From the NCBI RefSeq assembly GCF_004768465.1, contig NZ_SRMF01000002.1:520401-552400 (forward strand): DNA of 32,000 bases. Direction: 5' to 3'. The notes beneath the pieces are model-generated. The model saw only the letters and a list, made by a program, of their open reading frames with translations, ran no database searches and was not told the origin of the DNA. The translations under genes were made by a program, and so were the position numbers. Position 1 is the stretch's first letter; each line of letters starts with the position of its first letter. This document shows positions 8,898 to 26,784 of the stretch, in pieces. The stretch comes from Natronospirillum operosum. Its GTDB lineage: Bacteria; Pseudomonadota; Gammaproteobacteria; Pseudomonadales; Natronospirillaceae.

Positions 8898-8935
8898 ATC
8901 AGCGTACCTCCGGGGCAGGACAGTTGACCTTGCGT

Positions 8936-9466: not shown

Positions 9467-9495
9467 AATGCTCTACTCCCGCCTGACAGGCTGGT

Positions 9496-10473
9496 TCAAT
9501 CCACCAGCATGTCCATCAGTTCGTTGGCCAGATCCTCGCCCAGATCCTCACGCATCAGATCCCAGGCGGTTTCCAGCGACTGGTTGAGATAGTCTTCCGC
9601 GTCATCGCCTTCCAGGCGCAACTCGACATAGCCGGCCTCTTCGATCTCCTGCTCACCCAGCGCCAGGTACTGATCCCAGCTCTCGGCTTCCAGTTGATAG
9701 GCCAGATCGTCGCGCAGATAGGTTTGGAGCCGCTCGCGCAGATCTTCCGACATCCGGTTCCAGGCATCCTGATTGACCAGCACATTGAAGCCGGCACGGT
9801 AGAACTGAGGCGATACATAATGGGACACGACGTCGCCATACTGCGGCGCCCAGCCCTGATTGCCCTGCACAAAGCCGTCGATCACACCACGCTCCATGGC
9901 GGTGAAAATTTCTCCGATCGGCATGATGGTGGTATTGGCACCCATGGCCTCCAGGAACGGCTGCGCAGTCGGGAAGACCCGAATCCGCTTGCCGCGGATG
10001 TCGTCCAGAGAAGTGATTTCGTCACCCAGCCAGATATTGAAGCCGATTTCCGAGGCCGGAATTTCACCCCAGAACTTCAGCCCGCGGTCAGCATGCAACT
10101 CGTCCAGCCGCTCGTAATACCCGGTGCCGCGAATCTCCTCATAGGTCTTCATGGACAGGTTGTTGGTGGTGGAAGCCGGCACAGTACCCGAATAGTAGCT
10201 CGGGCTGATCAGCGCCACATCGATGGCGCCATTGCGCACGGCGTCAGCGAGATCGAATGGATTGATCACTTCCGGGCCACCGATCCAGTTCAACTGCACC
10301 TCGCCCGCAAACTCGTCATTGATGCCGTCAATAAAGGCCTGAAAGCCGGTCGCCAGCGGAATGGCCTGCGGGATGAAAGACACCACACGCAGCTGTTGTT
10401 GGGCCTGGGCCGAAACGGCCAGGGTCGCAGTGGCCAGACCTGCGGCAAGAGCAGTCAGTATCCTGTTTTTCAT
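9496..10473 (-). CDS. dctP: TRAP transporter substrate-binding protein (DctP family)
   Basis: 325 aa with signal peptide MKNRILTALAAGLATATLAVSAQA. DctP-like length and position. An SD AGAGGTG lies upstream. Confidence 0.9.
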   Translation of the reverse strand: MKNRILTALAAGLATATLAVSAQAQQQLRVVSFIPQAIPLATGFQAFIDGINDEFAGEVQLNWIGGPEVINPFDLADAVRNGAIDVALISPSYYSGTVPASTTNNLSMKTYEEIRGTGYYERLDELHADRGLKFWGEIPASEIGFNIWLGDEITSLDDIRGKRIRVFPTAQPFLEAMGANTTIMPIGEIFTAMERGVIDGFVQGNQGWAPQYGDVVSHYVSPQFYRAGFNVLVNQDAWNRMSEDLRERLQTYLRDDLAYQLEAESWDQYLALGEQEIEEAGYVELRLEGDDAEDYLNQSLETAWDLMREDLGEDLANELMDMLVD

Positions 10474-10510: not shown

Positions 10511-11641
10511 TCAGTCCAGCGCGACATTCCAGGCATCATAGCCATACACCCAGTCCGCATTGCCAGCCTGTTTGAGCCAGTCATTGGCTCGGGAACCGCG
10601 TTGTACATTGGCGGTACGTTCCAGCCGTGCGCGCTCGAAACGCTGCAGTGCCGGTGCCAGATCCGTTGTCGAAACACTCTCCAGGCAGCGCGCCAGCACC
10701 ACGGCATCCTCAATGGCCATACAAGCCCCCTGCGCCATGAAGGGCACCATGGGGTGCGCCGCATCACCCAGCACCACGGCCGCGCCACGGTGCCACGCGG
10801 ACATGGGCTCACGAACATAGAGCGCCGATTTGGTCACCGACTCGACTGCGCCCAGCAGCGCCTGCACTTCAGGATGAAAGTCCTGGTAAACCGCACGCAA
10901 CTCTTCCACATCACCCGGCATGGTCCAGGACTCCTCGGTCCAGCCCTGTTGTGGTGTGGTGGCAAAGATGAACACCTCTTCACCGCGAGTCAGCGGAAAG
11001 ACCACGACCTGAATGTCCGGTGAGGGCCCCCACCACTTGGTGAAGGCATCGAGATTGGGTACATCAATGGCGCTGCGGGGCACCACGGCCCGGTAGGACA
11101 CCAGACCGGTAAATTCGGGCTGATCGGCGCCAAACAGGCTGCGGCGAACGGCGGAATGGATGCCGTCACCACCGACCAGCAGGTCTGCCGTGGTGGTACG
11201 GTCACGTTCGAAACGGATCAGCGGTGGTGTGGACTGGCTGTCTACCGACTCCACACCGTGATCCAGATGGATAACATCAGAAGGCAGCTGCTGTTCCAGC
11301 GCCTGCAGCAGGTCGCCACGGTGGATGGTAAGCTGCGGTGCACCATAACGCTCTTCAGCGTCATTGCCCATGGCCAGCTTGGAAGTGACTTCGCCGGTAT
11401 CCCAGGTGCGACTGAGGCGATGCGTCGGCCGAGCGGCCGTCTCGCGAATGATGCCACCGACACCCAACCCGTCCAGGCACTTCACCGCATTGGGCGTAAG
11501 ATTGACATCCGCGCCGATGCGACGGAATGCCTTTGCCTGCTCATAAACCCTGACCTGATGCCCGACCTGTCCGCAGGCAATGGCCGCACAAAGGCCGCCA
11601 ATGCCGCCGCCACAGATAGCCAGTTCCAACCCTGTCTTCAT
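10511..11641 (-). CDS. FAD-dependent aromatic-ring monooxygenase (salicylate / 3-hydroxybenzoate hydroxylase-like)
   Basis: GGGIGGLCAAIA dinucleotide fold, GGDGIHSAVR, and GDAAHPMVPFMAQGACMAIEDA. I moved the start to the ATG at 11641 (MKTGLELAI) behind GAGAGGG. The 30-codon upstream extension runs through the AT-rich promoter. Confidence 0.9.
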   Translation of the reverse strand: MKTGLELAICGGGIGGLCAAIACGQVGHQVRVYEQAKAFRRIGADVNLTPNAVKCLDGLGVGGIIRETAARPTHRLSRTWDTGEVTSKLAMGNDAEERYGAPQLTIHRGDLLQALEQQLPSDVIHLDHGVESVDSQSTPPLIRFERDRTTTADLLVGGDGIHSAVRRSLFGADQPEFTGLVSYRAVVPRSAIDVPNLDAFTKWWGPSPDIQVVVFPLTRGEEVFIFATTPQQGWTEESWTMPGDVEELRAVYQDFHPEVQALLGAVESVTKSALYVREPMSAWHRGAAVVLGDAAHPMVPFMAQGACMAIEDAVVLARCLESVSTTDLAPALQRFERARLERTANVQRGSRANDWLKQAGNADWVYGYDAWNVALD

Positions 11642-11730
11642 AAGGCCCTCTCGCCGTCGATCACCGATTTCAACCGGCTTGTTTCCTGCTCCATGTTTTA
11701 TTATATGAAACAAGTTTTTATATATGATCA

Positions 11731-11759
11731 ACGATAGAACAGGACCCGCCGGATGTCAA
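11731..11759 (-). promoter_or_regulatory. Sigma70-type promoter P2 for the monooxygenase-dctPQM operon
   Basis: On the minus strand: CCGGATTGACA (the same 11-mer as at P1), a 17-nt spacer, then TATCGT. An AT-rich block with TTGTTTCATATAAT follows. Confidence 0.6.
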
Positions 11760-12845: not shown

Positions 12846-13772
12846 ATGGACATAAGACACCTGCGCCATTTCGTGGCGGTCGCGGAAGAGCTCCATTTCG
12901 GACGTGCAGCGCGCCGCCTGAACATGGAGCAGGCGCCGCTGAGCCAGTCCATCAAGCGTTTCGAAGAATATCTCGGAGGCGCACTTTTCGACCGTGCCGC
13001 ACGCAGTGGCACCCAACTGACCCCACTGGGGCAGCAACTGCTGCCGGATGCCCGACGGCTGGTCAGCGAGTTCGAGCTGACCATGCAGAATGCCCAGCTT
13101 GCAGCCACCGGAGAGCAGCGGCCGGTGAAGGTCGGGTTTGTCACTGCCGGCATTTTGCAACTGGTGCCTCAGGCCATTCGGCGCCTGCATCAGGTTGCAC
13201 CGGACATTCAGGTCAAACTGCGTGAAGCAGGCACTGCGGACCTGCTGGACATGCTGCGGGACGACGAACTGGATGTCTGCATCACCTTGCCCAGCGAGCA
13301 CTGCCCGCCCGGCATACAGATGATGGAAATCAGAAGAGACAGGACAATGCTGGCGATATGCAGACATCATGCACTCGCCGAACAGAAAATAATAACTGTC
13401 GATGATATTCGAAAAGAGCCACTTATATTTTTCCCGCGCGCAGTAAATCCCTATTTATATAAGCGCTTGCATGATTATTTTAATGCCCATGATTATACCC
13501 CGAGTATCGAACAGGAAGCGAAACTGACGCCAACCATGCTGGCCCTGGTCTCCGCCGGGCTGGGGGTCTGCTTCGTGCAGCAGAGCGCCGCCCTGTTGCC
13601 GTTCCCGGATGTGACGCTGCGCGAGATCGACGATCTCAGCGACGCGGTGCCCTGGAGCCTGATGCTGGCCTGGAAGCCCAGGCTCGCCAATGACGGGGTC
13701 ATGCGCTTTATCGACTGCCTGAAAGCTGCGGCACAGGACGCAGATAACGCAACGCCAGCAGCAGCACCATGA
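12846..13772 (+). CDS. LysR-family transcriptional regulator
   Basis: 308 aa. N-terminal MDIRHLRHFVAVAEELHFGRAARRLNMEQAPLSQSIKRFEEYLG is the canonical LysR HTH. It is divergent from the TauD-like gene. Confidence 0.9.
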   Translation: MDIRHLRHFVAVAEELHFGRAARRLNMEQAPLSQSIKRFEEYLGGALFDRAARSGTQLTPLGQQLLPDARRLVSEFELTMQNAQLAATGEQRPVKVGFVTAGILQLVPQAIRRLHQVAPDIQVKLREAGTADLLDMLRDDELDVCITLPSEHCPPGIQMMEIRRDRTMLAICRHHALAEQKIITVDDIRKEPLIFFPRAVNPYLYKRLHDYFNAHDYTPSIEQEAKLTPTMLALVSAGLGVCFVQQSAALLPFPDVTLREIDDLSDAVPWSLMLAWKPRLANDGVMRFIDCLKAAAQDADNATPAAAP

Positions 13773-15645
13773 TGGTCAGCAACAGCCACTGGTACACACC
13801 CGCTCCGACGCCGGTGAACCCCATCAGCACGATCGCCGCGCCCAGCAGACACAGCACCAGCCGATACAGCGGCGGCAACATGCCACGCCAGTAGCCGATG
13901 CTGCCGGCGGCGATACCCGCAAAGCTTACCACCACCAGCACAAACATCAGCAACCCTTCACCCCAGCCTCTGGTCAGCAACAGAGCCGGGTTCACGATCA
14001 TCATGAAAGGCAGTACAAACAGGGGCCACCCGAGAGCGACACATTCCACCGCCGTGCGCATGGGCCGGGCGTCGCCGATGCTGGCAGCAGAGAAGGCGGC
14101 GATGGCCACCGGCGGGGTAATCATCGACAGCACGCCAAAGTAGAAGATGAAGAAGTGGGCCGCCAGCGGCTCGATGCCGACCTGCACCAGCGCCGGCGCC
14201 ATCAGCACTGCCAGCAGCACATAGACACCGGTAGTGGGCATGCCCATGCCCAGTATGATGGAGGCCACAGCCGTGTAGACCACCAGCAGGGTCACCATGT
14301 CGAAGGACAGATACAGCAGGAACCGGGACAGGGACTGAGTCAGCCCGGAATAGTTCAGCACCCCGATGATCACGCCGGCCGCAGCCGATATGATGATAAC
14401 GTCGGTGGCGATCACACCGGTGGAACGAAAGTTGTCCAGCACCTCGCGCAGCCGCACCTTGTGGCCCATGTAGCCCAGGGTCAGGCCGCAGACGGCATAG
14501 AAGGCAGCAGCACTGAAGGCGGCCATTTCCGGACTCCAGCGAAACCCGATCAGCAGCACGAACAACAGTATCAGCCCGAAGAAGGTGTACCAGCCACTGC
14601 GAAAGTACTCCCAGGCGGTGCGGTCCAGCGGCTCAATGGCGCCGGTACCATCCCGGCAGGCCAGCAGGTGGATATTCAGAAACAGAATGACGAAGAACAG
14701 CGTGGCCGGGATCAGCGCTGCCATGACCACGGTAGCGAACGGAATCTGCAGAAACTCTGCCATCAGGAACGCTGCGGCGCCCATCACCGGCGGTATCAAC
14801 TGGCCGCCCGTCGAAGCCACCGCCTCGGTGGCTGCGGCGCGTTCCGGTTTCACACCGGCCCGCTTCATCATCGGAATGGTGATCACACCACTGGTGGCCA
14901 CATTGGCCACCGCACTGCCGGACACCGAGCCCAGCAGCGCCGATGACACCACCGACACCTTGGCCGGCCCACCGGGCGAACGCCGGAAAACGGCCAGGCA
15001 GATGTCGGTAAAGAACTGTCCGCCGCCCGAACGACTCAGCAGCCCGCCCATGAACAGGAAGGGCAGCACCACCACAACGGCCACAGCCACCGGCATACCC
15101 AGCAGGGCCGACGGGTCGGTGGTGATATAGGTCACCAGGTAATCCCAGTTCACGGAGGGCGCCGCAAACCGGGACGGCAGATGACTGCCCCAGAGCCCAT
15201 AAGCCACTATGGTGACAATGATGACCAGCAGCGGCAGACCGGCAATACGACGCACTGCCTCCAGCATGGCCAGCAGCAACAGGGAGCCGCCGATAACGAC
15301 CTCCGGCGGCCGAAAGGCGATGGCCATGGAGTATTGCTCGAAATTCCAGGCGAAATAACCCGCTACCAGCAGGCACCCCCATGCGGCCACAAGGTCCAGT
15401 ACGCGGCGCAACCAGAACTGCCAGGGCGCCAACTGCGCCGATACCGGCCATTTGTGGTAGGCCACAAACAGCGCACAGCCCACAGCCAGCGCGAAGAACT
15501 GCTCTTCGTAATAGCTGATGCCAAAATAGGAACCCAGATTGAAAGCCAGAAAACAGGTGATCAGAGTCAGGGCAGCAGCACAGGCCACAAAAACCCATTG
15601 ATTGATCAACACCAGGCCACGTACAACCATCGACATCAGGATCAC
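13708..15645 (-). CDS. TRAP transporter fused permease (TAXI-type, small and large domains fused)
   Basis: 645 aa and highly hydrophobic throughout. It lies directly downstream of a TAXI-family binding-protein gene. Confidence 0.9.
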   Translation of the reverse strand: MILMSMVVRGLVLINQWVFVACAAALTLITCFLAFNLGSYFGISYYEEQFFALAVGCALFVAYHKWPVSAQLAPWQFWLRRVLDLVAAWGCLLVAGYFAWNFEQYSMAIAFRPPEVVIGGSLLLLAMLEAVRRIAGLPLLVIIVTIVAYGLWGSHLPSRFAAPSVNWDYLVTYITTDPSALLGMPVAVAVVVVLPFLFMGGLLSRSGGGQFFTDICLAVFRRSPGGPAKVSVVSSALLGSVSGSAVANVATSGVITIPMMKRAGVKPERAAATEAVASTGGQLIPPVMGAAAFLMAEFLQIPFATVVMAALIPATLFFVILFLNIHLLACRDGTGAIEPLDRTAWEYFRSGWYTFFGLILLFVLLIGFRWSPEMAAFSAAAFYAVCGLTLGYMGHKVRLREVLDNFRSTGVIATDVIIISAAAGVIIGVLNYSGLTQSLSRFLLYLSFDMVTLLVVYTAVASIILGMGMPTTGVYVLLAVLMAPALVQVGIEPLAAHFFIFYFGVLSMITPPVAIAAFSAASIGDARPMRTAVECVALGWPLFVLPFMMIVNPALLLTRGWGEGLLMFVLVVVSFAGIAAGSIGYWRGMLPPLYRLVLCLLGAAIVLMGFTGVGAGVYQWLLLTIMVLLLALRYLRPVPQLSGSR

Positions 15646-15679
15646 TCTCCCATCGGCTTTCTGTTCTGCGGAATAAAGG

Positions 15680-15710
15680 GCCCGGGGGCATTTGCCCTGC
15701 GGGCCCGGGC
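15680..15710 (-). other. Intercistronic GC stem-loop between the TAXI binding-protein and permease genes
   Basis: GCCCGGG (15680-15686) pairs with CCCGGGC (15704-15710). GGGCCCGGG occurs twice (15678-15686 and 15701-15709). Confidence 0.4.
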
Positions 15711-15713
15711 AGG

Positions 15714-16658
15714 TCAGTCGAAGTAGTTCAGAGCTGCATCATGGTAGGGAATGTTGGGTACGCCACGCATGCGTTCACGGTCAATGCCGCGGAAGTTGGC
15801 GACCGCATTGCCCAGTTCCTCACTGCCTTCTTCCATGGCCTGCAGGACCGACTCGATCGCTGCGGGATCGAAATCGCGGTGCGCGACCAGAACCACAGCA
15901 TAGGTCAGCAAATTGGTATCTGCAGCAATACCGGCCGGCAGGCTCTCTCTGTCCATCGGCGCCGGATAACCCTGCGGCATGATTTGCTGCGTGGCTTCAA
16001 CGGCAGCGTCATCGTCATACAGCGACAGGAAACGAACGCCGCCCATGGAGGCTTCCAGCTCTTCCACACTGCCGGAGCCTGCAGACAGGAAGGCCACATC
16101 CACCCGGCCGGAAGACAGCAGTTCGCCGCCGCGCGGTGTATTCGGCACCGATACAGTGGTTATGTCCGAGTCGGACAGCCCCGCATTGGCGACTATGGCC
16201 TGACGCATCAGTTCGATAATCGGCGCTGAAGAGTAGCCTGCGGCCACTCGCTTGCCGGCGATATCAGACAATTCCTGAATGTCCGAATCATCATCCACCA
16301 GAAAGCCGACCTGGCTTTCAAACAGCCCCGCGACCACGCGCAGGTTCGGGTGCTCCGAGTTGAACGGCACCTCGCCGTCCAGTGCGCGCGATACCTCGAA
16401 CACATTGACCACGGCAAAGTCGAGTTCGCCCTGATTGACCAGAGCCATCAGCGGCCCCGAGCCGGCATAAGGCTGCACCCGGGCATTGATGCCCTGATTT
16501 TCGAGTGTTTCGGACAAGCCGACACCGGTGGAGTAGAACAGCGTACCCGGCTGGTTGGTTCCGATTGTGACTGTCTGGCTGGCAGCCGGGGCAGACGCGA
16601 GCAGCCCGGTTATCAGCAGGGACAGCGGGAGTAGCAGTCTCGATTTGATCGTCAGCAT
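15714..16658 (-). CDS. TAXI-family TRAP transporter solute-binding protein
   Basis: Signal peptide MLTIKSRLLLPLSLLITGLLASAPAASQ, then TIGTNQPGTLFYSTGVGLSE...GELDFAVVN. I chose the ATG at 16658 behind AGGTGA. The ORF-track start at 16667 is a GTG. Confidence 0.9.
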   Translation of the reverse strand: MLTIKSRLLLPLSLLITGLLASAPAASQTVTIGTNQPGTLFYSTGVGLSETLENQGINARVQPYAGSGPLMALVNQGELDFAVVNVFEVSRALDGEVPFNSEHPNLRVVAGLFESQVGFLVDDDSDIQELSDIAGKRVAAGYSSAPIIELMRQAIVANAGLSDSDITTVSVPNTPRGGELLSSGRVDVAFLSAGSGSVEELEASMGGVRFLSLYDDDAAVEATQQIMPQGYPAPMDRESLPAGIAADTNLLTYAVVLVAHRDFDPAAIESVLQAMEEGSEELGNAVANFRGIDRERMRGVPNIPYHDAALNYFD

Positions 16659-16690
16659 AAACATCACCTGTTATGTGTTTCAGTTCCGTT

Positions 16691-16994: not shown

Positions 16995-17756
16995 TCAGTT
17001 GAAGACAAAGCCGCCGTTGACCGGGATGACCTGACCGCTGACAAAGTCGGACCAGCCTGACAACAGGTAGAGCACAGTGCCGTCGACATCATCAGCCTGC
17101 TGCTCGCCGGCCAGCGAGCGGCCGGCGGCATAGTAGTCCCAGCGTTCCTGCGGCACGTATTCGGTGGCCTCGACCCGGGTCAGCCCAGGCGCCACCACAT
17201 TGACACAGATATTGTCGCTACCCAGCTCGCGCGCCATGGCGCGGCTCATGGAGATCACTGCCCCCTTGCTGGCCACATAGGCCATCAGGCGCGGCGCGCC
17301 CCAGAGGGCCGTGTCCGAGGCCATGTTCACCACCTTGCCGCGTCTGTCACCGCCTTTCAGCAGCGGCACTGCGGCTCGTGTCATCAGCCAGACACCGCGC
17401 ACATTGACCTGCATGACCCGGTCCCACAGGTCCTGGTCGTATTCATGCATCGTCTTGCCGCCGACATTGGTGGCCAGGGCAGCATTGTTGACCAGACCAT
17501 CCAGTGGGCCGTCGGCAGCGACCCGGGCCATGCCTTGCTCGATGCTGTCCGGGTCGGCCTGATCAATGTACAGATCTTCCACCGCATGACCCTCGCCGCG
17601 CAAGGCTGCGGCGGTGGTTGCCAGTTCGTCCTGCAGAATGTCGCTCAGCACCAGTTGCGCCCCGGCGGCGGCGGCGGCAGAGGCGATCTGGCGCCCCAGA
17701 CCGCGCGCGGCGCCGGTGATCATGATGCGGCGACCGGCAAGCATACCGTCACTCAT
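16995..17756 (-). CDS. Classical short-chain dehydrogenase/reductase
   Basis: 253 aa with TGAARGLG, NNAA, MAS...YVASK (a canonical Ser/YxxxK). Its start overlaps the upstream stop as ATGA at 17753-17756. Confidence 0.9.
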   Translation of the reverse strand: MSDGMLAGRRIMITGAARGLGRQIASAAAAAGAQLVLSDILQDELATTAAALRGEGHAVEDLYIDQADPDSIEQGMARVAADGPLDGLVNNAALATNVGGKTMHEYDQDLWDRVMQVNVRGVWLMTRAAVPLLKGGDRRGKVVNMASDTALWGAPRLMAYVASKGAVISMSRAMARELGSDNICVNVVAPGLTRVEATEYVPQERWDYYAAGRSLAGEQQADDVDGTVLYLLSGWSDFVSGQVIPVNGGFVFN

Positions 17757-18787
17757 GACGCCGCCTCGGTATGCCGCTTCAACTGCTGTTTGGCTTCCTT
17801 CTGCAGTACCCGGCGCAGGCGCGACAGACCGACATCATGCTGATACAGGTTTTCATGCATGCGGGCCTCGGGAGCCAGGCTTTCGAGAATGACTCGGTCC
17901 TGTTCCAGCACATCCCAGTGCAGGCCTTCCAGCTTGGTGCGATAGAAGAACTTCCACACATCGCGCTGCCAGCCGCTGACCTTGCGTACGCGCCAGAAGA
18001 AGACGCGGCAGTTGTCCGCATCTTCCGGTACTACCATGCCGACAATCCAGAACGGACCACCGGGGCCGAACTCCTTCTTGTAGGGGATCGACAGGCGCAG
18101 CCAGAGGGCGCCGGTGTTGCCGTACTCCACCCAGTCGAAATTGACGCCGAGCTGGCCGGTTTTCTTGAAGATGAAGCCGGCGTCCGTGGGCACCAGTTCC
18201 ATTTCGGCCTTGCGGTCACCTTCGGCCATGGAATGCGAGTCCGCATGGAGGTAGGTGCCGTGCATGGGGTCCATGACGTTGTCGATGGCATACTGATAGT
18301 TGCACTTCCAGGTGGCCGTGCACAACATGTGGCCGTAGGTTTCGGTGTCGTCCAGTTGCTCCGGCAGGGCCAGTTCGGTCGGCTCTTCATTCGGCGTGGT
18401 GCCGAACCAGACAAAGACCGCGCCGTGCGCCTCCTGCACGTGGTAGCGGCGCACACAGTTCTGCCCCACCAGCGGGCTGTTGCTGATGGCCGGCACATCA
18501 CAGATGGTGCCTTCGCCATTCACCTCCACCCCGTGATACCAGCAGGCCAGCCGGTCACCCAGATTCCAGCCTCGTGACAGGCGGGCACCCCGGTGCGGAC
18601 AGCGGTCCTCGATGGCATTGATGTTGCCGTCGAAATCACGCCACAGCACGATATTCTCGCCCAGGCGGGTAATGCCGAGCGGGTTGCTGCCCACTTCCCA
18701 ACTGGCCACAACCGGATACCAGAGTGACCGCAGGCCCTGATCCAGGTACTGCTGTACAGCGTCGTTCTGTTCTGTTGTCTTGCTCAT
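17753..18787 (-). CDS. Rieske [2Fe-2S] non-haem-iron oxygenase, alpha-type catalytic subunit (no beta subunit present)
   Basis: 344 aa. Rieske motif CPHRGARL...CWYHG, mononuclear iron motif NVMDPMHGTYLH. An SD GGGAGG lies upstream. Confidence 0.9.
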   Translation of the reverse strand: MSKTTEQNDAVQQYLDQGLRSLWYPVVASWEVGSNPLGITRLGENIVLWRDFDGNINAIEDRCPHRGARLSRGWNLGDRLACWYHGVEVNGEGTICDVPAISNSPLVGQNCVRRYHVQEAHGAVFVWFGTTPNEEPTELALPEQLDDTETYGHMLCTATWKCNYQYAIDNVMDPMHGTYLHADSHSMAEGDRKAEMELVPTDAGFIFKKTGQLGVNFDWVEYGNTGALWLRLSIPYKKEFGPGGPFWIVGMVVPEDADNCRVFFWRVRKVSGWQRDVWKFFYRTKLEGLHWDVLEQDRVILESLAPEARMHENLYQHDVGLSRLRRVLQKEAKQQLKRHTEAAS

Positions 18788-18813
18788 GTCTGCCTCCCGC
18801 TGTACCGGTGCGC

Positions 18814-19119
18814 TCAGCGCCCCAGCACCGCCATTTCACGCTGAAAACTGTCTTCGGTCCACTGGGCCCCGGTACGATCAAGGCAGCCTGCCTTGTTGAG
18901 ACCCTGCACCACTTCGGGCAATTCGGTAGCGCCGGCAGCGAACACCTCTTCCAGGGCGGCCTGCAGGTCCAGCTCGAACTGCGCCGGTGCATGCTTGCGT
19001 GTCTGCCAGACCGGGTTGGCAAAGCCACCCGGCTGCTCGATATGACCCTGCCCTGGCTGGGAGGCCGGTATGACTTTCTGCCAGTCGCGCAGTTGGGCGT
19101 TGTATGCCGATTCGTTCAT
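18814..19119 (-). CDS. Small conserved-looking protein of unknown function (101 aa); the C-terminus resembles a recombinase-type helix-turn-helix
   Basis: The ATG at 19119 overlaps the Rieske ferredoxin stop (ATGA at 19116-19119) and is preceded by GAGGTGA at 8 nt. Third-position GC bias matches the neighbouring genes. The C-terminal LPEVVQGLNKAGCLDRTGAQWTEDSFQREMAVLG follows the LN..G....G..W pattern. The 46-codon upstream extension in the ORF track overlaps the ferredoxin gene and is rejected. Confidence 0.6.
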   Translation of the reverse strand: MNESAYNAQLRDWQKVIPASQPGQGHIEQPGGFANPVWQTRKHAPAQFELDLQAALEEVFAAGATELPEVVQGLNKAGCLDRTGAQWTEDSFQREMAVLGR

Positions 19120-19439
19120 GATGCGGTCACCTCGGCTGAGTCCAGTTGAATTTCTTCGTCCACGATGCGCAGCGGATACACCTTGATGTCCCGCTCCGCC
19201 GGGCCGCCCAGACACTTGCCGGTGCGGATATCGAAAGTGGCTTCGTGCAGCGGACACTCAATCTCGCCGTCTTCCACAAACCCCTGCGACAGCAGGGCAT
19301 AGGCGTGAGGACAGACATCTTCCAGTGCATAGTAGTCATCGTCGAGCAGGTAGATGCCGACTTCCTTGCCGTCTATCTTGGCCGAGAAGGGAAAGTCTTC
19401 CTGTACCTGATCCTTGCGACAGACTGTGGTCCAACTCAT
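19116..19439 (-). CDS. Rieske-type [2Fe-2S] ferredoxin (oxygenase electron-transfer component, NirD/CarAc-like size)
   Basis: 107 aa from the ATG at 19439 (MSWTTVC) behind AGGGGG. Contains CPHAYALL...CPLHEATF. Confidence 0.85.
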   Translation of the reverse strand: MSWTTVCRKDQVQEDFPFSAKIDGKEVGIYLLDDDYYALEDVCPHAYALLSQGFVEDGEIECPLHEATFDIRTGKCLGGPAERDIKVYPLRIVDEEIQLDSAEVTAS

Positions 19440-19500: not shown

Positions 19501-19528
19501 AGTATAGGCAGTCGCCCACTCCTGTCAA
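19501..19528 (-). promoter_or_regulatory. Sigma70-type promoter P4 for the Rieske operon
   Basis: On the minus strand: TTGACA (19528-19523), a 16-nt spacer, then TATACT (19506-19501). The AT-rich block CATATAAAAAACAAAAGTTGATATATGATAATTTT follows. Confidence 0.6.
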
Positions 19529-19576: not shown

Positions 19577-20365
19577 TCAGGCTTCATCCGGCCGGGTCCG
19601 GGTCACCACCTGATAGTCATGCGGCGGCATGACCATGGTCATCCAGGCGAAGGGGCGATCCGGGGCGATACTGCGCAGACTGTAGCGGATATCCAGGCGC
19701 AATCCGGTATCACCCGCTGCTGCCCCGACATGAGGACCGATGGATTGGGGAATTCGATAACGGCTCAGGCGGTTCTCGGCCTGCAGTTCCGCCAGCGGGA
19801 TGCGATCCTGCAACAATGGCAGTACACTTTCGTGCTCGAGCGCTTCCGCCGGCAGCGTCATCAGGGGCGCGGCGATGTCGCCGCGCAGAATGATGTTGGA
19901 GTAGGCATCAAAGGCACCGTCGATGCGGTCCTGCCGCACGATCTGCACATAGCCGTCGTCACAGGGCCCGAGCACACCGGTCCAGGCGCCACGCCCGGTC
20001 AGGCGACGCCGCTTGAGCAGGCGAATGAACACCATGCGGACACGGTCACCGTCCGGACGCAGAAAACTGAAGGCCGGGGTGCTGATCTCGTGTCGATGGT
20101 CCCCCGCCGCGACAAAGGTACCACGGCGGCGGTGCCGGACCAGTTCACCGCTCTGTACCAGTTCGCGCAGAGCCTTCTGTATGGTGCCGAGACTGAGCGG
20201 CAGCGCCTCGGCCATGGCCTGTTCCGTGGGCAGGCGGGTACCCTCGGCCAGCGCCCCGTCGACAATCAGTTCGATCAGGGCATCACGCAGCAGCCGGTAC
20301 TTGGGCGTTCTCGGATTCTGCGCCTGCAGGGCCTGCAGACGGCGTTCGAGGCGTTGCATCAACAT
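19577..20365 (-). CDS. GntR-family transcriptional regulator (probable UTRA effector domain)
   Basis: The winged HTH reads PKYRLLRDALIELIVDGALAEGTRLPTEQAMAEALPLSLGTIQKALRELVQSGELVRHRRRGTFV. The start is uncertain (ATG at 20365, 20359 or 20434). The 20434 start would overlap the divergent MFS gene. Confidence 0.8.
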   Translation of the reverse strand: MLMQRLERRLQALQAQNPRTPKYRLLRDALIELIVDGALAEGTRLPTEQAMAEALPLSLGTIQKALRELVQSGELVRHRRRGTFVAAGDHRHEISTPAFSFLRPDGDRVRMVFIRLLKRRRLTGRGAWTGVLGPCDDGYVQIVRQDRIDGAFDAYSNIILRGDIAAPLMTLPAEALEHESVLPLLQDRIPLAELQAENRLSRYRIPQSIGPHVGAAAGDTGLRLDIRYSLRSIAPDRPFAWMTMVMPPHDYQVVTRTRPDEA

Positions 20366-20421
20366 GATCAATGGCAGGCTCAGGGAATACAGGACATCTC
20401 TTATGGCATATTGGAACCCGC

Positions 20422-21813
20422 ATGGACAAGTCACAATCCGTTGAAATCAACCGACCACTGATTCTGGGGGTGCTGATTTTCGGCGCCTTCGTCACCGTGC
20501 TGAACCAGACGCTGATGCTGGTGGCGATTCCGCCCATCATGCGCGATTTCGACATCAGCGCGGCGCAGGCACAGTGGGTGACCACGGCCTTCATGCTGAC
20601 CAATGGCATCTTCATTCCGGTGTCGGCAGCCCTGATCGACCGCTATTCCAGCCGCTACCTGTACCTGACCGCGATCACGCTGTTTCTGCTCGGCACCGCG
20701 CTGGGTGCCATTGCCCAGACATTCCCCCAGTTGCTGACAGCACGCATCATCCAGGGCATGGCCGCCGGCATCGCCATGCCGCTGGCACAGACCGTGATCA
20801 TGTCGCTGTTTCCGCCCCATCGACGCGGCACGGCCATGGGGCTGGTCGGGCTGGTAATCGCCTTTGCGCCAGCCATAGGCCCGACGCTCTCGGGCTGGCT
20901 GATCGACCAGTTGTCCTGGCGCTACCTGTTTATTGTACTGCTGCCCTTTGTGGTACTGGGTCTGATCGCGGCCTGGTGGGTCATGGCCGATGTGACCGAG
21001 TATCGCGACAGCCGCATCGACCCGCTGTCGGTCAGCCTGTCGACCCTGGGCTGGGGCGGCCTGCTCTACGGCTTCAGCATGGCCGGCACCGTGGGCTGGA
21101 ACCAGCCCAGCGTGATCGGCGCGCTGCTGATCGGCGTGGTGGCCCTGAGCCTGTTCATTCCCCAGCAACTGCGCATGGACAAACCCATGCTGGAGTTCAG
21201 GGTATTTCAAGCCCCCATGTACCGGCTGACCACCGGCATCTCCATCATCGTCTTCACGCTGCTGATCGGCCCGCAGACGCTGCTGCCCATCTATGTTCAG
21301 AACGCGCGCGGCTTCGGTGCCCTGCAGACCGGCCTGCTGCTGTTGCCGGGGGCGGTGGTCATGGGGCTTATGTCGCCCATAGCCGGCCGCCTGTTCGACC
21401 GCTTCGGCATCCGCTGGCTGGCCATTGGCGGGCTGCTTCTGATGTGCATCGGCCTCGGGCACTTCGTCACCCTGGGACCGGAAACGCCGCTGTCACGCAT
21501 TACCGTCGGCTTTATTCTGCACATGCTGGGCATTTCCACTCTGATGATGTCGCTGATCACGGCCGGCATCAACGCCAGCCCGCCGCATCTGATTGCCCAT
21601 GCCACCGCCATGAACAACACCCTGCGCATGGTCGGCGCCTCCATCGGCACGGCCGTGCTGGTGTCCATCATGAGTGCCCGCACGGCAACACTCGCTGACC
21701 TGCCGACAGAACTGGCGCTGATCGGCGGTCTGCGCACGGCCTTTGTCACGGCTCTGTGTCTGGCCCTGGCTGGCCTGGTGCTGGCCTTTCGGCTGCGTGA
21801 TCAACCGAGCTGA
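20422..21813 (+). CDS. MFS transporter, DHA2 (EmrB/QacA-like, 14-TMS) drug/metabolite:H+ antiporter type
   Basis: 463 aa from the ATG at 20422 (MDKSQSVEINRPLILGVLIFGAFVTVLNQTLMLVAIPPIMRDF). Length and motif pattern are typical of DHA2. It is divergent from the GntR gene. Confidence 0.9.
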   Translation: MDKSQSVEINRPLILGVLIFGAFVTVLNQTLMLVAIPPIMRDFDISAAQAQWVTTAFMLTNGIFIPVSAALIDRYSSRYLYLTAITLFLLGTALGAIAQTFPQLLTARIIQGMAAGIAMPLAQTVIMSLFPPHRRGTAMGLVGLVIAFAPAIGPTLSGWLIDQLSWRYLFIVLLPFVVLGLIAAWWVMADVTEYRDSRIDPLSVSLSTLGWGGLLYGFSMAGTVGWNQPSVIGALLIGVVALSLFIPQQLRMDKPMLEFRVFQAPMYRLTTGISIIVFTLLIGPQTLLPIYVQNARGFGALQTGLLLLPGAVVMGLMSPIAGRLFDRFGIRWLAIGGLLLMCIGLGHFVTLGPETPLSRITVGFILHMLGISTLMMSLITAGINASPPHLIAHATAMNNTLRMVGASIGTAVLVSIMSARTATLADLPTELALIGGLRTAFVTALCLALAGLVLAFRLRDQPS

Positions 21814-22119: not shown

Positions 22120-23145
22120 ATGAATCGCACAGCCACAATCTCATTCTCATTCAAGGCAGCACTCGCCAGCACTCTGGGCGGCATTCTGCTCACTGCCGGC
22201 GCCACCACAGCGCTCGCAGATTATCCGGAACGACCACTGACCATGGTTGTCGCCGCCGGGCCGGGTGGTTCGAATGACCGCGCGGCCCGTGTCATGTCCA
22301 ATTTTCTGGCTGAAGAACTCGGTCAGCCGGTCAATGTGGTCAACCGCCCGGGTGGCGGCAACTTGCTGGGTCATGAGTATCTGCGCCAGCAGGCCGCCGA
22401 TGGCTACACCCTCCTGCGTACTACCGCCATTCCCTACATGACCATCAATCAGGAACTGCAGGGTGCTTCGTTTACCATTGAGGACTTTCAGCCACTGAAC
22501 CTGGTGGACATTGATACGTCCATGATCGCGAGCTCGACACGGGGTGACTACGACTCCATCGATGACCTGATCGCAGCCATCAGCGACAACCCTGGCAGTG
22601 TCAGCATGGGCGTGCAGCCGACCTCGTCGGACATGATCAATGCCACCCTGTTTCTGGAAGCCATCGGTCTGTCTGTTGATGATGTACGCGTAGTGACCTT
22701 TGACGGCGGTGGTGATGTCCGCACCGGCGTTGCCGGCAATCAGTTCGATTTCGGGGTCGTCGGGGAAGCCGGCCTGCGCCAGATGTCCAGCGAGATTGAG
22801 CCGCTGATGACCTTCTCGCGCGAGCCGATGTCCGATGTATGGGATGCACCGCATGTGCTGGAAGTCGTTGACCAGCACGGGGTTGAAGACTATCCGCATG
22901 TGCTGTCCGGCTCCATCCGTGGCTACTTTGTGCATTACGAGCTGATGGAAGAAGAGCCCGAGCGCTATGCCCGCCTGGTCGAGGCCTTCGAAAACATCGC
23001 CAACAACCCGGAAGCCATCGAAGCACACCATGAACAGGATCTGACCATCGACTGGATGGGTCCTGAGGCCTCGCGGGAAATGATGCTGCAAGAGCATGAG
23101 AGCCTGGCTCGTCCCGAGTTCCTGCAGATCGTGCAACCTGACTGA
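22120..23145 (+). CDS. tctC: Tripartite tricarboxylate transporter (TTT) substrate-binding protein
   Basis: 341 aa with a signal peptide ending TTALA, then DYPERPLTMVVAAGPGGSNDRAARVMSNFLAEELGQPVNVVNRPGGGN, the Bug/TctC signature. Confidence 0.9.
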   Translation: MNRTATISFSFKAALASTLGGILLTAGATTALADYPERPLTMVVAAGPGGSNDRAARVMSNFLAEELGQPVNVVNRPGGGNLLGHEYLRQQAADGYTLLRTTAIPYMTINQELQGASFTIEDFQPLNLVDIDTSMIASSTRGDYDSIDDLIAAISDNPGSVSMGVQPTSSDMINATLFLEAIGLSVDDVRVVTFDGGGDVRTGVAGNQFDFGVVGEAGLRQMSSEIEPLMTFSREPMSDVWDAPHVLEVVDQHGVEDYPHVLSGSIRGYFVHYELMEEEPERYARLVEAFENIANNPEAIEAHHEQDLTIDWMGPEASREMMLQEHESLARPEFLQIVQPD

Positions 23146-23262
23146 TCCGGAAGCCGAAGCGCAGCAATGCTGCCGCGGACACCACAGAAGCGGTGTCTGC
23201 GGCTGTCTCCGCCATCAAGACAACCACGCTTCACCTATCAATTGACCGCAGGAGTGACGACC

Positions 23263-23793
23263 ATGCAGCTCGGAAACTGGCGCCTCGACGCAGACTGGGG
23301 CCATCTCGCCTTTGCCACAGTCATCGCCGGCATCACCTGGTGGTACTTCCAGGACGTCACGGGTACCTCCATGAATCGCAACAACATCATTCTGGTTTAC
23401 CCCCTCAGTCTGATGATTCTGGGGCTGTACGGCGTAACCCTGATCAAGAGTATCCGCATCCACAGAACTGCCGGCGATGCCGATACTACAAAGCCGGAAC
23501 CGGATCCTGCCGTAGCGGCAGAAGACGATGAACCGCAGACCAACGAACAGGAACAATCACTGTTCGACATGGTGCGCGCGCTGATACTCCTGCTGATGCT
23601 GGGCGGCTTCGTGTTCAGCTACAACATCATCGGACTGGATGTCGCTACCTTTGTCTTTATCGCACTGAGCCTGGTACTGCTCGGCTACCGTCGCTGGTGG
23701 TTCGTGCTGGTTTACGCCCTGGTATTCACTGTCTTTGTCATCGGCGGAGCGAGGTTTCTGCTCAGCTACCCGATGCCCACCCTGTTTCTATAG
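23263..23793 (+). CDS. tctB: TTT small membrane subunit
   Basis: 176 aa from the ATG at 23263 behind AGGAG. It has four hydrophobic segments and lies between tctC and tctA. It carries an unusual acidic loop of about 40 aa. Confidence 0.75.
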   Translation: MQLGNWRLDADWGHLAFATVIAGITWWYFQDVTGTSMNRNNIILVYPLSLMILGLYGVTLIKSIRIHRTAGDADTTKPEPDPAVAAEDDEPQTNEQEQSLFDMVRALILLLMLGGFVFSYNIIGLDVATFVFIALSLVLLGYRRWWFVLVYALVFTVFVIGGARFLLSYPMPTLFL

Positions 23794-23805
23794 GAGATTG
23801 CCACC

Positions 23806-25329
23806 ATGCTTGACTGGACGGCGCTGAGCGGAGCCTTCGCTCTGCTTGGCAGCGACATCAACATCTGGCTGGTTATCATACCCGGCCTGATCATAGGTCT
23901 GGTGGCCGGTTCGATAGCCGGCCTGTCCAACTCCATGGCCATGGCCCTGTGCCTGCCACTGACCCTCTACATGGACTTCCTGCCTGCCGTCATGTTCCTG
24001 ACCGCCATATTCACCGGCGGCGGTTTCGGCGGTGCAGTGACCTCCATTCTGATGGGCATCCCAGGCACGACGTCCGCTGTGGCCACCACCTTTGACGGCT
24101 ATCCCATGACCCGCCAGGGTCTGCACAATGAAGCCATGGGCCTGGCACTGATGAGTTCCGTCATCGCGGTGTTCATCGGCTACATCCTGCTGATGTTTGT
24201 GGTAGCACCGCTCGGCGCCTGGGTCATCGGACTCGGACCCGGCGAGATGCTGATGATTGCCATCTGGGGCCTGACCATGATTGCCGCTCTGGGCGGCAAG
24301 GACCTGACCCGAGGGCTGATAGCCGGCGGCTTCGGCCTGATGCTGGGTACGGTCGGCATGAACACCAGCGGCTATACGCGTGGCACCATGGACATCCCCT
24401 TCCTGCTCGACGGTATACCGGTGGTACCTGCCATGATGGGCATGTTCGCCGCCAGTCAGTTGCTGTCACTGGTCGGCAATCAGTTCATCATCAGTGATGA
24501 AGGCGCGCGCCGCGCCGATTTCCGGCGCGTATTTGCCGGCGCGAAACAGGTCCTCAAGGTGCCGTTCTTCCACCTCCGAGGCAGCCTTATCGGTGTCTTT
24601 GTGGGCGCCATCCCGGGTGTGGGCTCTTCTGTGGGCAATCTCATCGCCTATGCCCAGGCCAAACGGACAGATGACGACCCCGAGAGCTATGGCAAGGGCA
24701 ACCCCAAGGGGGTCATTGCGGCAGAATCGGCCAACAGCAGCTCCGAGGGCGGCTCCATGGTGACCATGCTGGCACTGGGCATACCCGGTGGGGCCGGCAC
24801 CGCCATGCTGCTGGCTGCCTTCACGATGCACAATGTGACCGGCGGTCCGCAGTTCATCAACAACAATATGGATATTGTCTACACCATCATTCTGGGCAAT
24901 CTGGCCCAGGTCGTGCTGCTGCTGGGTGTGGGCATGGTGTTTCTGGCCGTGGCGGGCAACATAGTGCGCGTGCCGCTGACCATACTGATTCCCTCGGTCA
25001 TGGTGCTGGCTATTCTGGGATCCTATGCGATCACCGGCGATGTGGCCGGGCCGATCACCCTGTTCGTGTTCGCCGCCCTGGGCTGGCTGATGAAACGCTA
25101 CAAGTATCCGGTCGCGGCCGCTGTCGTGGGCCTGCTGCTGGGCCGCATGGTCGAGACCCAACTGATCCGGACCTATCAGCTCAGCGGTGGCATGGAACTG
25201 CAGTACTTCCTCGAGCGTCCCATCATCATCACGTTCTTCATTCTTCTGGTTCTGTCGCTGCTGCAACCTCTGATTACCCGTCAGATCAAGCAGCGCTGGG
25301 GCCGCAAAAACCTCAAGGCAGGAGTCTGA
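23806..25329 (+). CDS. tctA: TTT large membrane subunit
   Basis: 507 aa polytopic protein with GGGFGGAVTSILMGIPGT and GIPGGAGTAMLLAAF motifs typical of TctA. Confidence 0.9.
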   Translation: MLDWTALSGAFALLGSDINIWLVIIPGLIIGLVAGSIAGLSNSMAMALCLPLTLYMDFLPAVMFLTAIFTGGGFGGAVTSILMGIPGTTSAVATTFDGYPMTRQGLHNEAMGLALMSSVIAVFIGYILLMFVVAPLGAWVIGLGPGEMLMIAIWGLTMIAALGGKDLTRGLIAGGFGLMLGTVGMNTSGYTRGTMDIPFLLDGIPVVPAMMGMFAASQLLSLVGNQFIISDEGARRADFRRVFAGAKQVLKVPFFHLRGSLIGVFVGAIPGVGSSVGNLIAYAQAKRTDDDPESYGKGNPKGVIAAESANSSSEGGSMVTMLALGIPGGAGTAMLLAAFTMHNVTGGPQFINNNMDIVYTIILGNLAQVVLLLGVGMVFLAVAGNIVRVPLTILIPSVMVLAILGSYAITGDVAGPITLFVFAALGWLMKRYKYPVAAAVVGLLLGRMVETQLIRTYQLSGGMELQYFLERPIIITFFILLVLSLLQPLITRQIKQRWGRKNLKAGV

Positions 25330-25332
25330 CAC

Positions 25333-26784
25333 ATGGCAGCAACAGAACTGCATTATCTGACCGCACTTGAACAGGCGGCACTGATTCGGGATCGCAAGAT
25401 CTCTCCGGTGGACCTGGCCGAAGCCAGTCTGGCCAGAATCGAGTCTTCCGACAATCAGCTCAATGCCTGGACTCAGGTAGACCCGGAACAGACACTGGCT
25501 GCGGCCACTGCCGCAGAGCAGGAGATATCGGCCGGGCACTATCGCGGCCCGCTGCACGGGCTCACCTTTGGGGTGAAGGACCAGATGCACACCGATGGAT
25601 TCAAGACCACACTGGCCACCCGGGTTCTGAACGAGGACGAGATGGAGGCCGGCGAACAGGCCACCATCATCAGTCGCCTGCGCGCCTCCGGGGCCATCCT
25701 GCTGGGCAAACAGAACCTGCACGAGTTCGGCAAGGGCGGCACCATCGATTTCCCGTACGGCCAGCCGCGCAACCCATGGAACCTGAAACATACGGCTTCA
25801 AGCTCGTCCTCGGGGTCCGGAATTGCTCCGGCTGCCGGGCACTGCAGTTTCAGTATCGGCGAAGATACCGGCGGCTCCGTGCGCGGCCCCGCATCCTGCA
25901 ATGGCATTGTTGGCCTGCGCCCCACCCATGGTCTGGTCAGTCGCCATGGCGGCGTCATGTACGCCTACACCAGCGATACCTTTGGCCCCATGGCACGCAC
26001 CGTCGCCGATACCGCCGCCGTGCTGCAGGCCATTGCCGGGCATGACCCGCGTGATCCGATCAGCCTGCGCCACCCCGTCCCTGACTACTCGAGCCAGCTC
26101 GACGGCGGCATCAAGGGACTGCGTTTCGCCGTGGTCCGGGAACTGGCCCAGGGCGAGGGCACGGATCCTGAGGTGCGGGCTGCCTTCGATACGGCCGTAG
26201 ACACCCTGCGTGATGCGGGCGCCACTGTCGAGGAGATATCACTGCCACTGGCCAAGTGGGCCGTACCCCTGCAGTTACTGTCGGCTGATGCCGATGTGGC
26301 AGCCCAGTTTCTGGCGCAGTTTCTGCGTGATCGCTATGACCGCTTCGATGTCGGCACCCGCACCCGTCTGGCGGCATCGAGTCTGATCCCGGCCACGGTC
26401 TACAGTCGTGCTATGCGAGCGCGTACTCTGGTTCGGGAGCAGGTACTGGCGGCGACACGTCAGTACGATGCCCTGCTCACGCCCACCAATGTCACGCCCC
26501 CCAAACTGATCGAGGCCAGCCAGGAGAAAGTGGGTGGCAATCATGATGTAGTGAGCCGGCTGATCGAACGCCGCATCTGCCACTATCCGTTCAGCCTTGC
26601 CAATGTGCCGGCCATGTCCGTGCCTTGCGGGTTTGCCCGCAACGGTGGCGTGCCGATCGCCCTGCAGATTGCCGGCAGACCGCTTTCCGAGCCCCTGTTG
26701 TTCCGCATCGGTCATGCCTATCAGCAGCTGACGGACTGGCACCGGCAGCATCCCGATCTTGGCGGAATTACAGCTGCCGCCTGA
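25333..26784 (+). CDS. Amidase-signature (AS) family amidohydrolase (GatA/AtzE-like)
   Basis: 483 aa. Contains the catalytic Lys context FGVKDQ, a Ser-rich signature SSSSSGSGIAPAAG, and the nucleophile context GEDTGGSVRGPAS. It starts 4 nt after the tctA stop. Confidence 0.9.
   Translation: MAATELHYLTALEQAALIRDRKISPVDLAEASLARIESSDNQLNAWTQVDPEQTLAAATAAEQEISAGHYRGPLHGLTFGVKDQMHTDGFKTTLATRVLNEDEMEAGEQATIISRLRASGAILLGKQNLHEFGKGGTIDFPYGQPRNPWNLKHTASSSSSGSGIAPAAGHCSFSIGEDTGGSVRGPASCNGIVGLRPTHGLVSRHGGVMYAYTSDTFGPMARTVADTAAVLQAIAGHDPRDPISLRHPVPDYSSQLDGGIKGLRFAVVRELAQGEGTDPEVRAAFDTAVDTLRDAGATVEEISLPLAKWAVPLQLLSADADVAAQFLAQFLRDRYDRFDVGTRTRLAASSLIPATVYSRAMRARTLVREQVLAATRQYDALLTPTNVTPPKLIEASQEKVGGNHDVVSRLIERRICHYPFSLANVPAMSVPCGFARNGGVPIALQIAGRPLSEPLLFRIGHAYQQLTDWHRQHPDLGGITAAA

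Follow-up and report, generated by a model that had tools for sequence, protein, structure and literature searches.

A 101-residue protein encoded beside a Rieske oxygenase in the gammaproteobacterium Natronospirillum operosum is probably (at a probability of about 0.7) a dedicated, cofactor-less partner of that enzyme, acting as a subunit, in the assembly of the enzyme or as an effector. The gene was analysed within a 32,000-nucleotide stretch of contig NZ_SRMF01000002.1 (positions 520,401 to 552,400; the window) and occupies positions 18814-19119 of the window on the minus strand, between the genes of a Rieske-type ferredoxin and of an oxygenase of the alpha-only type. The protein belongs to Pfam family PF20552 (HTH_62, "recombinase-like helix-turn-helix domain") and is called HTH_62 here. 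Three lines of evidence argue for the partnership: HTH_62 and the oxygenase co-occur exactly, their genes are conserved as neighbours, and natural fusions join HTH_62 to the oxygenase.

The match to PF20552 (95.1 bits, E 2.6e-27, gathering threshold 27 bits) spans residues 13-100 of the protein and positions 3-71 of the 72-position model, which misses the first part of the N-terminal arm of this long form. An exhaustive search of 1.8 billion cluster representatives (50% identity) yielded 157 relatives at E ≤ 0.001, nearly all of them stand-alone proteins of 70-115 residues (about 100 residues). PF20552 is matched by all 45 relatives that were aligned, and their alignment is conserved over its whole length and not at the C-terminus alone, the N-terminal 45 residues carrying 2.05 bits per column and the C-terminal half 2.22. 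The family motifs are NPxL..W, GxGxIExPG, NxxWQTR (R41 invariant), P..YE, LN..G and G..WT..F. An earlier reading of the window made from the letters alone (the sequence-only reading) had seen no recognisable motif in the N-terminal half; this is right for known motifs, but the half holds the strongest signature of the family itself (NPxL..W, GxGxIExPG, NxxWQTR...P..YE). Given the PF20552 match, the 157 relatives and the conservation over the whole length, the open reading frame (ORF) is beyond doubt a real coding gene. NCBI names the family "recombinase-like helix-turn-helix domain-containing protein", and an NCBIfam search with the window protein returned no model. The sequence-only reading had also stated that none of the roles it offered was described for Rieske systems. 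None turned up: a literature search by family name and accession found no paper naming PF20552 or HTH_62, and only the fold-based name, with no function or partner, was found.

Linkage of HTH_62 to one oxygenase clade

Five other genomes of the taxonomic family of the window keep the order ferredoxin, HTH_62, oxygenase, with identities of about 71%, 60% and 80%, respectively. Six distant members (31-37% identical to the window protein, or belonging to the short form described below) were looked up by exact sequence in public assemblies, and 6/6 lie directly upstream of an oxygenase with Rieske and VanA_C domains. A larger sample of loci was gathered with a degenerate DNA pattern for N..WQTR...P..YE, which gave 112 stretches from one-genome-per-species contigs, mostly of Burkholderiaceae but with Alpha- and Gammaproteobacteria also represented; P. 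xenovorans LB400, Cupriavidus, Ralstonia, Klebsiella and Providencia are among the sources. The pattern produced at least one chance match (locus L021, Actinopolyspora); in a profile search of 129 loci, 127 ORFs match the family at E ≤ 1e-5. An orthologue of the window-type oxygenase follows immediately, on the same strand and with a gap of -5 to 118 nucleotides, in 88 of the 100 HTH_62 genes with enough flanking DNA. The oxygenase is found 1.6-2.9 kb downstream in another 8 of the 100, and the remaining four loci end before it could appear; the genes intervening in these eight and four loci encode an ABC ATPase, an NMT1-type binding protein and a permease. If the HTH_62/Rieske-oxygenase pair is defined operationally by the location of both genes in the same operon, usually with HTH_62 directly upstream, the window falls within the group, with a gap of 26 nucleotides.

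The presence of the two genes in whole genomes follows the same rule. HTH_62 is found in six of the 38 genomes of the window's family, and oxygenase orthologues (at least 80% identical) in the same six, while the other Rieske oxygenases of the family (at most 39% identity, over the Rieske domain only; located in other genomes or as extra copies in the six) are without HTH_62. Among 201 Burkholderiaceae genomes, 82 contain a strong HTH_62 match and the same 82 contain the oxygenase (E ≤ 1e-40), always adjacent; the oxygenase without HTH_62 was found in none of the 201. Essentially no HTH_62 members were found in 400 genomes of the class outside these groups. Since related genomes are not independent, these counts are descriptive and not statistical; the distribution of the pair is patchy and its linkage strict. 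Two Burkholderiaceae genomes have only weak HTH_62-like matches. One of these, a borderline member of 99 residues (30 bits; L136:4986-5285), lies amid unrelated unknown genes with no Rieske oxygenase; PF20552 has a fringe outside the oxygenase-linked group.

HTH_62 and the oxygenase are also found as a single polypeptide. When both were joined as one query and the best 120 matches inspected, 21 proteins among them had a precomputed Pfam content of PF20552, Rieske and VanA_C. At least 20 fusion clusters (90% identity) were obtained, of 470-500 residues and 73-87% identical to one another, and in 20 proteins the oxygenase comes first, followed by a linker of 40-70 residues rich in glycine, alanine, arginine and proline and by a complete long-form HTH_62 with all motifs. 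Read-through of a stop codon cannot explain these proteins, because their domain order reverses the usual gene order. Four assemblies (from NCBI, ENA and JGI, one of them on a 5.4-Mb contig) encode such fusions exactly; the fusion-bearing assemblies have no separate HTH_62 gene and contain the same kind of catabolic cluster. On the oxygenase tree, the fused enzymes form one nested clade (support 100/100). Two further candidates, P0189 (HTH_62 followed by oxygenase) and P0125 (Rieske ferredoxin and HTH_62), have junctions that read like frameshifts and were not counted.

These observations bear on the simplest alternative, a passenger gene unrelated to the oxygenase, for example the remnant of a mobile element, that was inherited with the cluster. 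The fold label of the family derives from recombinases, a serine recombinase gene lies about 8 kb away from the locus of LB400, and the borderline member of 30 bits is found in an unrelated context without an oxygenase. Against this, the linkage outlasts the rearrangement of every other component of the cluster across Alpha-, Beta- and Gammaproteobacteria, the protein is conserved over its whole length, and it is fused to the oxygenase throughout one clade. The passenger explanation is already largely refuted by synteny and fusion, and can hardly be correct.

A short form of HTH_62, of about 72 residues, lacks roughly the first 25 residues, and its partner oxygenases form a sister clade with about 50% identity to the oxygenase of the window. 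In a maximum-likelihood tree of the oxygenases, the short-form partners form one clade (support 100/99) and the long-form partners lie on the other side. The short-form systems use an FNR/Fer2-type reductase and no Rieske ferredoxin. Directly upstream of the short form, in most of the loci examined, is the gene of a conserved 110-residue protein (P0179, L015:7669-8001) without a Pfam family (weak DUF3303 match, E 0.11), in the place often taken by the Rieske ferredoxin in long-form systems. Its homologues (L133-L135, L137-L139, L143) are 73-77% identical to the L015 copy, and a database protein of 214 residues (P0161) fuses it to the short form; P0179 may be a second component of the short-form oxygenase systems. 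Long open frames around short-form genes in Burkholderiaceae were considered as fusions and rejected, as they are two genes in different frames. One genome stretch of an Arenibaculum sp. metagenome-assembled genome (L123) carries a long-form pair together with a short-form pair and its 110-residue protein, which indicates that the two systems can coexist as paralogous modules.

Pairwise distances between HTH_62 proteins track those between the oxygenases (r 0.93-0.98) more than those between the ferredoxins (partial r 0.72 versus 0.23). Such a correlation is weak evidence alone, because all the genes share the history of the operon. It is nonetheless one of several results that concern a second alternative, in which HTH_62 works as an adaptor for docking of the Rieske ferredoxin on the oxygenase, or has some other part in the electron-transfer chain; this would explain the position of its gene between the two, and a docking factor was among the roles that the sequence-only reading had offered. 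A Rieske ferredoxin gene is indeed directly upstream of HTH_62 in the window and in 66 of 109 informative loci, and the docking of the ferredoxin CarAc onto the oxygenase CarAa in the carbazole system is electrostatic, HTH_62 being strongly charged. However, 43 of the 109 loci have no adjacent ferredoxin, and some consist of HTH_62 and the oxygenase only (in one locus these two genes are the whole transcription unit). HTH_62 is equally conserved where the ferredoxin is missing from the neighbourhood or the reductase is of the FNR/Fer2 type, as in the short-form systems. The natural fusions are to the oxygenase, the sole apparent ferredoxin fusion (P0125) being a probable frameshift artefact, and the distances of HTH_62 follow the oxygenase and not the ferredoxin. 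We consider a docking role improbable. The sequence-only reading had proposed to check whether homologues always neighbour both a ferredoxin and an oxygenase: for the oxygenase this holds almost throughout, the cases beyond the 88 adjacent ones including eight in which it lies past transporter genes, and for the ferredoxin it does not.

Fold, charge and remote kinship to recombinases

The ORF encodes 101 residues plus the stop codon and can be divided in two parts. The N-terminal arm (residues 1-45; 18985..19119, minus strand) contains the motifs in the form NAxL..W, GxGxIExPG, NPVWQTR and P..FE, and has no predicted regular structure. Residues 46-101 and the stop codon (18814..18984, minus strand) correspond to an acidic three-helix bundle, with helices at residues 47-61, 67-76 and 89-100. 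In the AlphaFold2 model calculated with the 45-member alignment, the bundle (residues 47-100) has a predicted local distance difference test (pLDDT) score of 87-98, while residues 1-45 are without helices or strands, at pLDDT 55-71. A conserved arm that is predicted to lack structure of its own is as would be expected for a segment that becomes ordered on a partner. A search of the PDB with the family sequence profile gave nothing below E 0.1, and a Foldseek search of the PDB with the HTH_62 model gave nothing below E 1.

All the 159 unique members of the family are acidic, with a median isoelectric point (pI) of 4.7 and a maximum of 6.6, and the median for the helical domain is 4.3. The window protein has a pI of 4.85 overall and 4.18 in its helical domain (last 55 residues). 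The family alignment contains no conserved cysteine or histidine columns. With all members acidic and no conserved cysteine or histidine, a DNA-binding or metal-binding role is unlikely.

The C-terminal stretch of the protein, LPEVVQGLNKAGCLDRTGAQWTEDSFQREMAVLG, had been described in the sequence-only reading as the helix-turn-helix of serine-recombinase "Recombinase" domains. Pfam does call it a recombinase-like helix-turn-helix (PF20552); direct membership of the "Recombinase" family (PF07508) is not supported, as the window protein gives no match at E ≤ 0.1 and only one of the 45 relatives does, at E 0.059. For a repeat protein that matches both the Recombinase and the HTH_62 models, comparison with the family profile gives a probability of 85.6%. 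The last ~60 residues are similar to the PF07508 domain of large serine recombinases (LN..G....G..WT...F), and the kinship suggested by these sequences is remote. HTH_62 differs from those enzymes in having no Resolvase catalytic domain and an acidic instead of a basic domain; with 101 residues, no PF07508 match and no further domain, it does not qualify as a serine recombinase. Nor does it have the features of a helix-turn-helix transcription factor that binds DNA, being acidic and without a Foldseek match in the PDB at E < 1.

A small transcriptional regulator or co-regulator was nevertheless weighed as an explanation, in which the bundle would bind operator DNA or the local repressor and the fused proteins would be "trigger enzymes" similar to PutA. 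Several facts favour it: the Pfam name itself, the profile probability of 85.6% with the repeat protein carrying Recombinase and HTH_62 matches, the position of HTH_62 as the first gene in some operons, ahead of transporter genes, and the existence of fusions between enzymes and regulators, of which PutA is an established case. The charge of the protein stands against it, since none of the 159 members is basic and the helical domain is the more acidic part, as do the single, marginal PF07508 match among 45 members and the lack of a significant structural match to DNA-binding proteins in the Foldseek search of the PDB. Moreover, each cluster already has a conventional regulator, whose family changes while HTH_62 stays constant: GntR in the window, IclR in LB400, Providencia and several metagenomic loci, and TetR in another. 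Exact co-occurrence with one oxygenase clade would also be unusual for a regulator. A regulatory role, another of the roles in the sequence-only reading, thus appears quite improbable, and the partnership with the oxygenase remains the preferred interpretation.

The operon in the window and the variable parts of the cluster

The window unit comprises ferredoxin, HTH_62, oxygenase and a short-chain dehydrogenase/reductase (SDR), all on the minus strand. Genes for a reductase, an extradiol dioxygenase or a hydrolase are missing from its vicinity, and the only Reductase_C-type ferredoxin reductase (glutathione-reductase-type, GR-type) found in the genome sits on another contig (C1:370749-371015). 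The gene of the Rieske-type [2Fe-2S] ferredoxin (19116..19439; Pfam Rieske, E 1.6e-21) is upstream of HTH_62. Its listed ORF begins at TTG 19478, but the start is likely the ATG at 19439 (MSWTTV...), because residue 15 of the long ORF is where the Rieske domain starts and orthologues begin with MSW, as in Providencia (MSWVAV). The best NCBIfam match of this ferredoxin is to an AndAb-like ferredoxin, below the cut-off of that model. At the junction of the two genes the minus strand reads GAGGTGACCGCATCATGAACGAA, and the ATG of HTH_62 overlaps the TGA of the ferredoxin as ATGA. The coupling of a 101-residue ORF between a Rieske ferredoxin and an oxygenase, which the sequence-only reading had pointed out, is confirmed by the sequence and by the Pfam matches. 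The GAGGTGA that it placed 8 nucleotides upstream is present, but direct reading of the sequence places its end 7 nucleotides ahead of the ATG. The G+C content at codon positions 1/2/3 is 0.72/0.45/0.72 for HTH_62, 0.65/0.37/0.69 for the ferredoxin and 0.63/0.41/0.79 for the oxygenase, so that the third-position bias, said to match that of the flanking genes, is coding-like and near that of the ferredoxin, but slightly below those of the oxygenase and the SDR.

A spacer of 26 nucleotides (18788..18813), GCGCACCGGTACAGCGGGAGGCAGAC followed by ATG, separates the HTH_62 stop from the oxygenase start and holds a Shine-Dalgarno-like GGGAGG. Downstream of it is the alpha-only Rieske oxygenase of 344 residues (17753..18787), with Rieske and VanA_C domains, and then the SDR (16995..17756; adh_short_C2, E 2.7e-52), whose start overlaps the oxygenase stop and which is likely the cis-diol dehydrogenase of the pathway. 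A promoter-like site, TTGACA-16 nt-TATACT (19501..19528, minus strand), with 11/12 consensus matches, precedes the ferredoxin gene. It likely heads the four-gene unit; as a consensus match only, with one site found versus 1.1 expected in shuffled sequences, it is weak alone. A candidate for the local regulator is the GntR-family protein (19577..20434, minus strand; GntR, E 1.8e-13) whose gene lies further upstream in the same orientation. Downstream, also on the same strand, is a TAXI-type TRAP transporter (13708..16667), formed by a binding protein (15714-16667; TRAP_TAXI, 132 bits, cut-off 84) and a fused permease (13708-15645; DctM, E 1.5e-81). Uptake and catabolic modules are crowded in this region: positions 7581-10473 encode a DctPQM TRAP system and 10511-11731 an FAD monooxygenase, and a TctCBA tripartite tricarboxylate transporter, with an amidase-signature enzyme immediately after it, occupies 22120-26784.

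In other loci, most of what surrounds the pair is exchanged. The transporter is of the TAXI-TRAP type in the window, and elsewhere an MFS protein with a porin, an ABC/NMT1 system or TctC. As electron donors, some loci encode a Rieske ferredoxin together with a GR-type reductase and others an FNR/Fer2 reductase, and still others have none close by. HTH_62 and the oxygenase make up the invariant core; the SDR usually comes next, following the oxygenase in most related loci. The pair heads a widely conserved catabolic cluster, found on LB400 chromosome 2 (L130, ~3.164-3.184 Mb), in Providencia (L132) and at L009, L145 and L146. Its members include the SDR, a cupin, an alpha/beta hydrolase, an IclR regulator, a second SDR (PRK07062), a thiamine pyrophosphate (TPP) enzyme (PRK07064), an aspartate-dehydrogenase-like protein (PRK13303), an aldehyde dehydrogenase, an extradiol dioxygenase, a GR-type reductase and an MFS transporter or porin. 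For the LB400 neighbours, NCBIfam gave uninformative PRK-type models alone (PRK07062 for the SDR, PRK07064 for the TPP protein and PRK13303 for the aspartate dehydrogenase). Two database proteins, P0206 (544 residues) and P0235 (492 residues), contain SDR, Rieske and VanA_C domains in one product; they may be oxygenase-SDR fusions, or may have arisen artefactually from the stop-start overlap.

The solved structure nearest to the oxygenase is that of the carbazole 1,9a-dioxygenase CarAa (E 3e-23, with only the N-terminal half aligned), and the enzyme is distantly related to CarAa, phthalate dioxygenase and DdmC. The linkage of an SDR, an extradiol dioxygenase and a hydrolase in the fuller clusters suggests that the oxygenase may be a cis-dihydroxylating enzyme that feeds a meta-cleavage pathway. 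Kynurenate was considered as the substrate and set aside as speculation only, no genetic literature having been found in the literature search. Two possible precedents were likewise discarded: the picolinate system PicB1-B4 (6-hydroxypicolinic acid (6HPA) monooxygenase), which the paper describing it shows to have classical large and small subunits with a ferredoxin and a reductase, and the riboflavin/lumichrome system LumABCD, which is also of the alpha/beta type.

A putative partner of an alpha-only oxygenase

The results fit the following arrangement. HTH_62 would be made from the same transcript as the ferredoxin, the oxygenase and the SDR. Its acidic three-helix bundle would be the folded core, with a fold like that of a recombinase helix-turn-helix from which any DNA-binding character has been lost, and its unstructured, conserved 45-residue arm would become ordered on the surface of the oxygenase trimer. 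Bound there, HTH_62 could serve as a small subunit, structural or auxiliary, or could be an assembly or effector factor that a stable and active enzyme requires. Of the four roles that the sequence-only reading had put forward, accessory subunit and chaperone are favoured by the co-occurrence, the adjacency and the fusions, and docking factor and small regulator are not.

Some of the observations weigh against a physical partnership. Operon linkage, co-occurrence and the mirror-tree correlation are to some degree expected for any gene that is inherited with the cluster, the evolutionary rate of HTH_62 is about double that of the oxygenase, and the pattern sample is biased to long-form members with the WQTR...P..YE motif and to Burkholderiaceae. 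DNA-binding domains fused to enzymes of the PutA type exist, and fusion alone is compatible with a regulatory role. In an AlphaFold2 model of the fused protein P0284 as a monomer, the linker and the arm have pLDDT values of about 40-60 and no docking pose is seen. The oxygenase and the helical bundle of this model fold well; the model speaks neither for nor against docking, the more so as the real enzyme is expected to be a trimer. The alignment used for the model excluded the stand-alone HTH_62 sequences, since these had been aligned wrongly, with their N-termini placed on the oxygenase.

Rieske oxygenases are described as alpha3 or alpha3beta3 assemblies served by one or two electron-transfer proteins. 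To our knowledge, the alpha-only enzymes of the CarAa, phthalate and VanA group do not need any small subunit, and are described as needing redox partners only. The beta subunits of the alpha3beta3 enzymes (NTF2-like; NdoC, BphA2) resemble HTH_62 in being non-catalytic, free of cofactors, encoded beside alpha, co-inherited with it and presumed structural. HTH_62, however, has no sequence or fold relation to them, is shorter (101 residues versus ~170-190) and accompanies an alpha-only oxygenase; neither the window protein nor its relatives match Pfam Ring_hydroxyl_B. The closest parallel for the enzyme itself is the CarAa/CarAc/CarAd system, an alpha3 oxygenase with a separate Rieske ferredoxin, and related HTH_62 loci also have the GR-type reductase. 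As far as we know, the carbazole 1,9a-dioxygenase system as described has three components and no protein of the HTH_62 type. A non-catalytic protein needed by a VanA-like Rieske oxygenase is NdmE of the NdmCDE N7-demethylase, which has a glutathione S-transferase fold and links an oxygenase lacking a Rieske domain to its reductase; HTH_62 has no relation to NdmE, and its partner oxygenase keeps its own Rieske domain.

Effectors and assembly proteins of the diiron monooxygenases (MmoB, DmpM and T4moD; DmpK) offer a functional comparison. They are proteins of ~90-140 residues without cofactors, encoded inside the oxygenase operon; the disordered N-terminal tail of MmoB becomes ordered on the hydroxylase, and DmpK is an assembly factor encoded at the head of its operon. 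The likeness of HTH_62 to the MmoB/DmpM-type effectors is one of functional analogy only, as the enzyme class and the folds are unrelated, there is no Pfam match, and the partner of HTH_62 is a Rieske non-haem iron oxygenase and not a diiron hydroxylase. By this analogy, HTH_62 could be a stoichiometric, third kind of Rieske-oxygenase subunit, in an alpha3-gamma3 enzyme in which the bundle and the arm gate the access of the ferredoxin or reductase, or the activation of oxygen, in the manner of MmoB, with P0179 completing the module in the short-form systems. This more specific proposal is tentative and, on balance, doubtful; if it were true, the clade would contain the first Rieske oxygenases with an effector protein.

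What the survey establishes is that, in the sampled genomes, a whole clade of Rieske oxygenases has no occurrence that lacks the extra small protein, and that one lineage fuses both. The clade occurs in genera of laboratory and clinical relevance: Paraburkholderia xenovorans LB400, Cupriavidus, Ralstonia, Klebsiella, Serratia, Providencia, Acinetobacter and Halomonas. An obligatory extra protein, if true, would be a new variant of the alpha-only Rieske scheme. Should HTH_62 be needed for assembly or activity, this would explain failed reconstitution from the oxygenase and its redox partners alone, add a type of component to the classification of Rieske systems, and give PF20552 a function.

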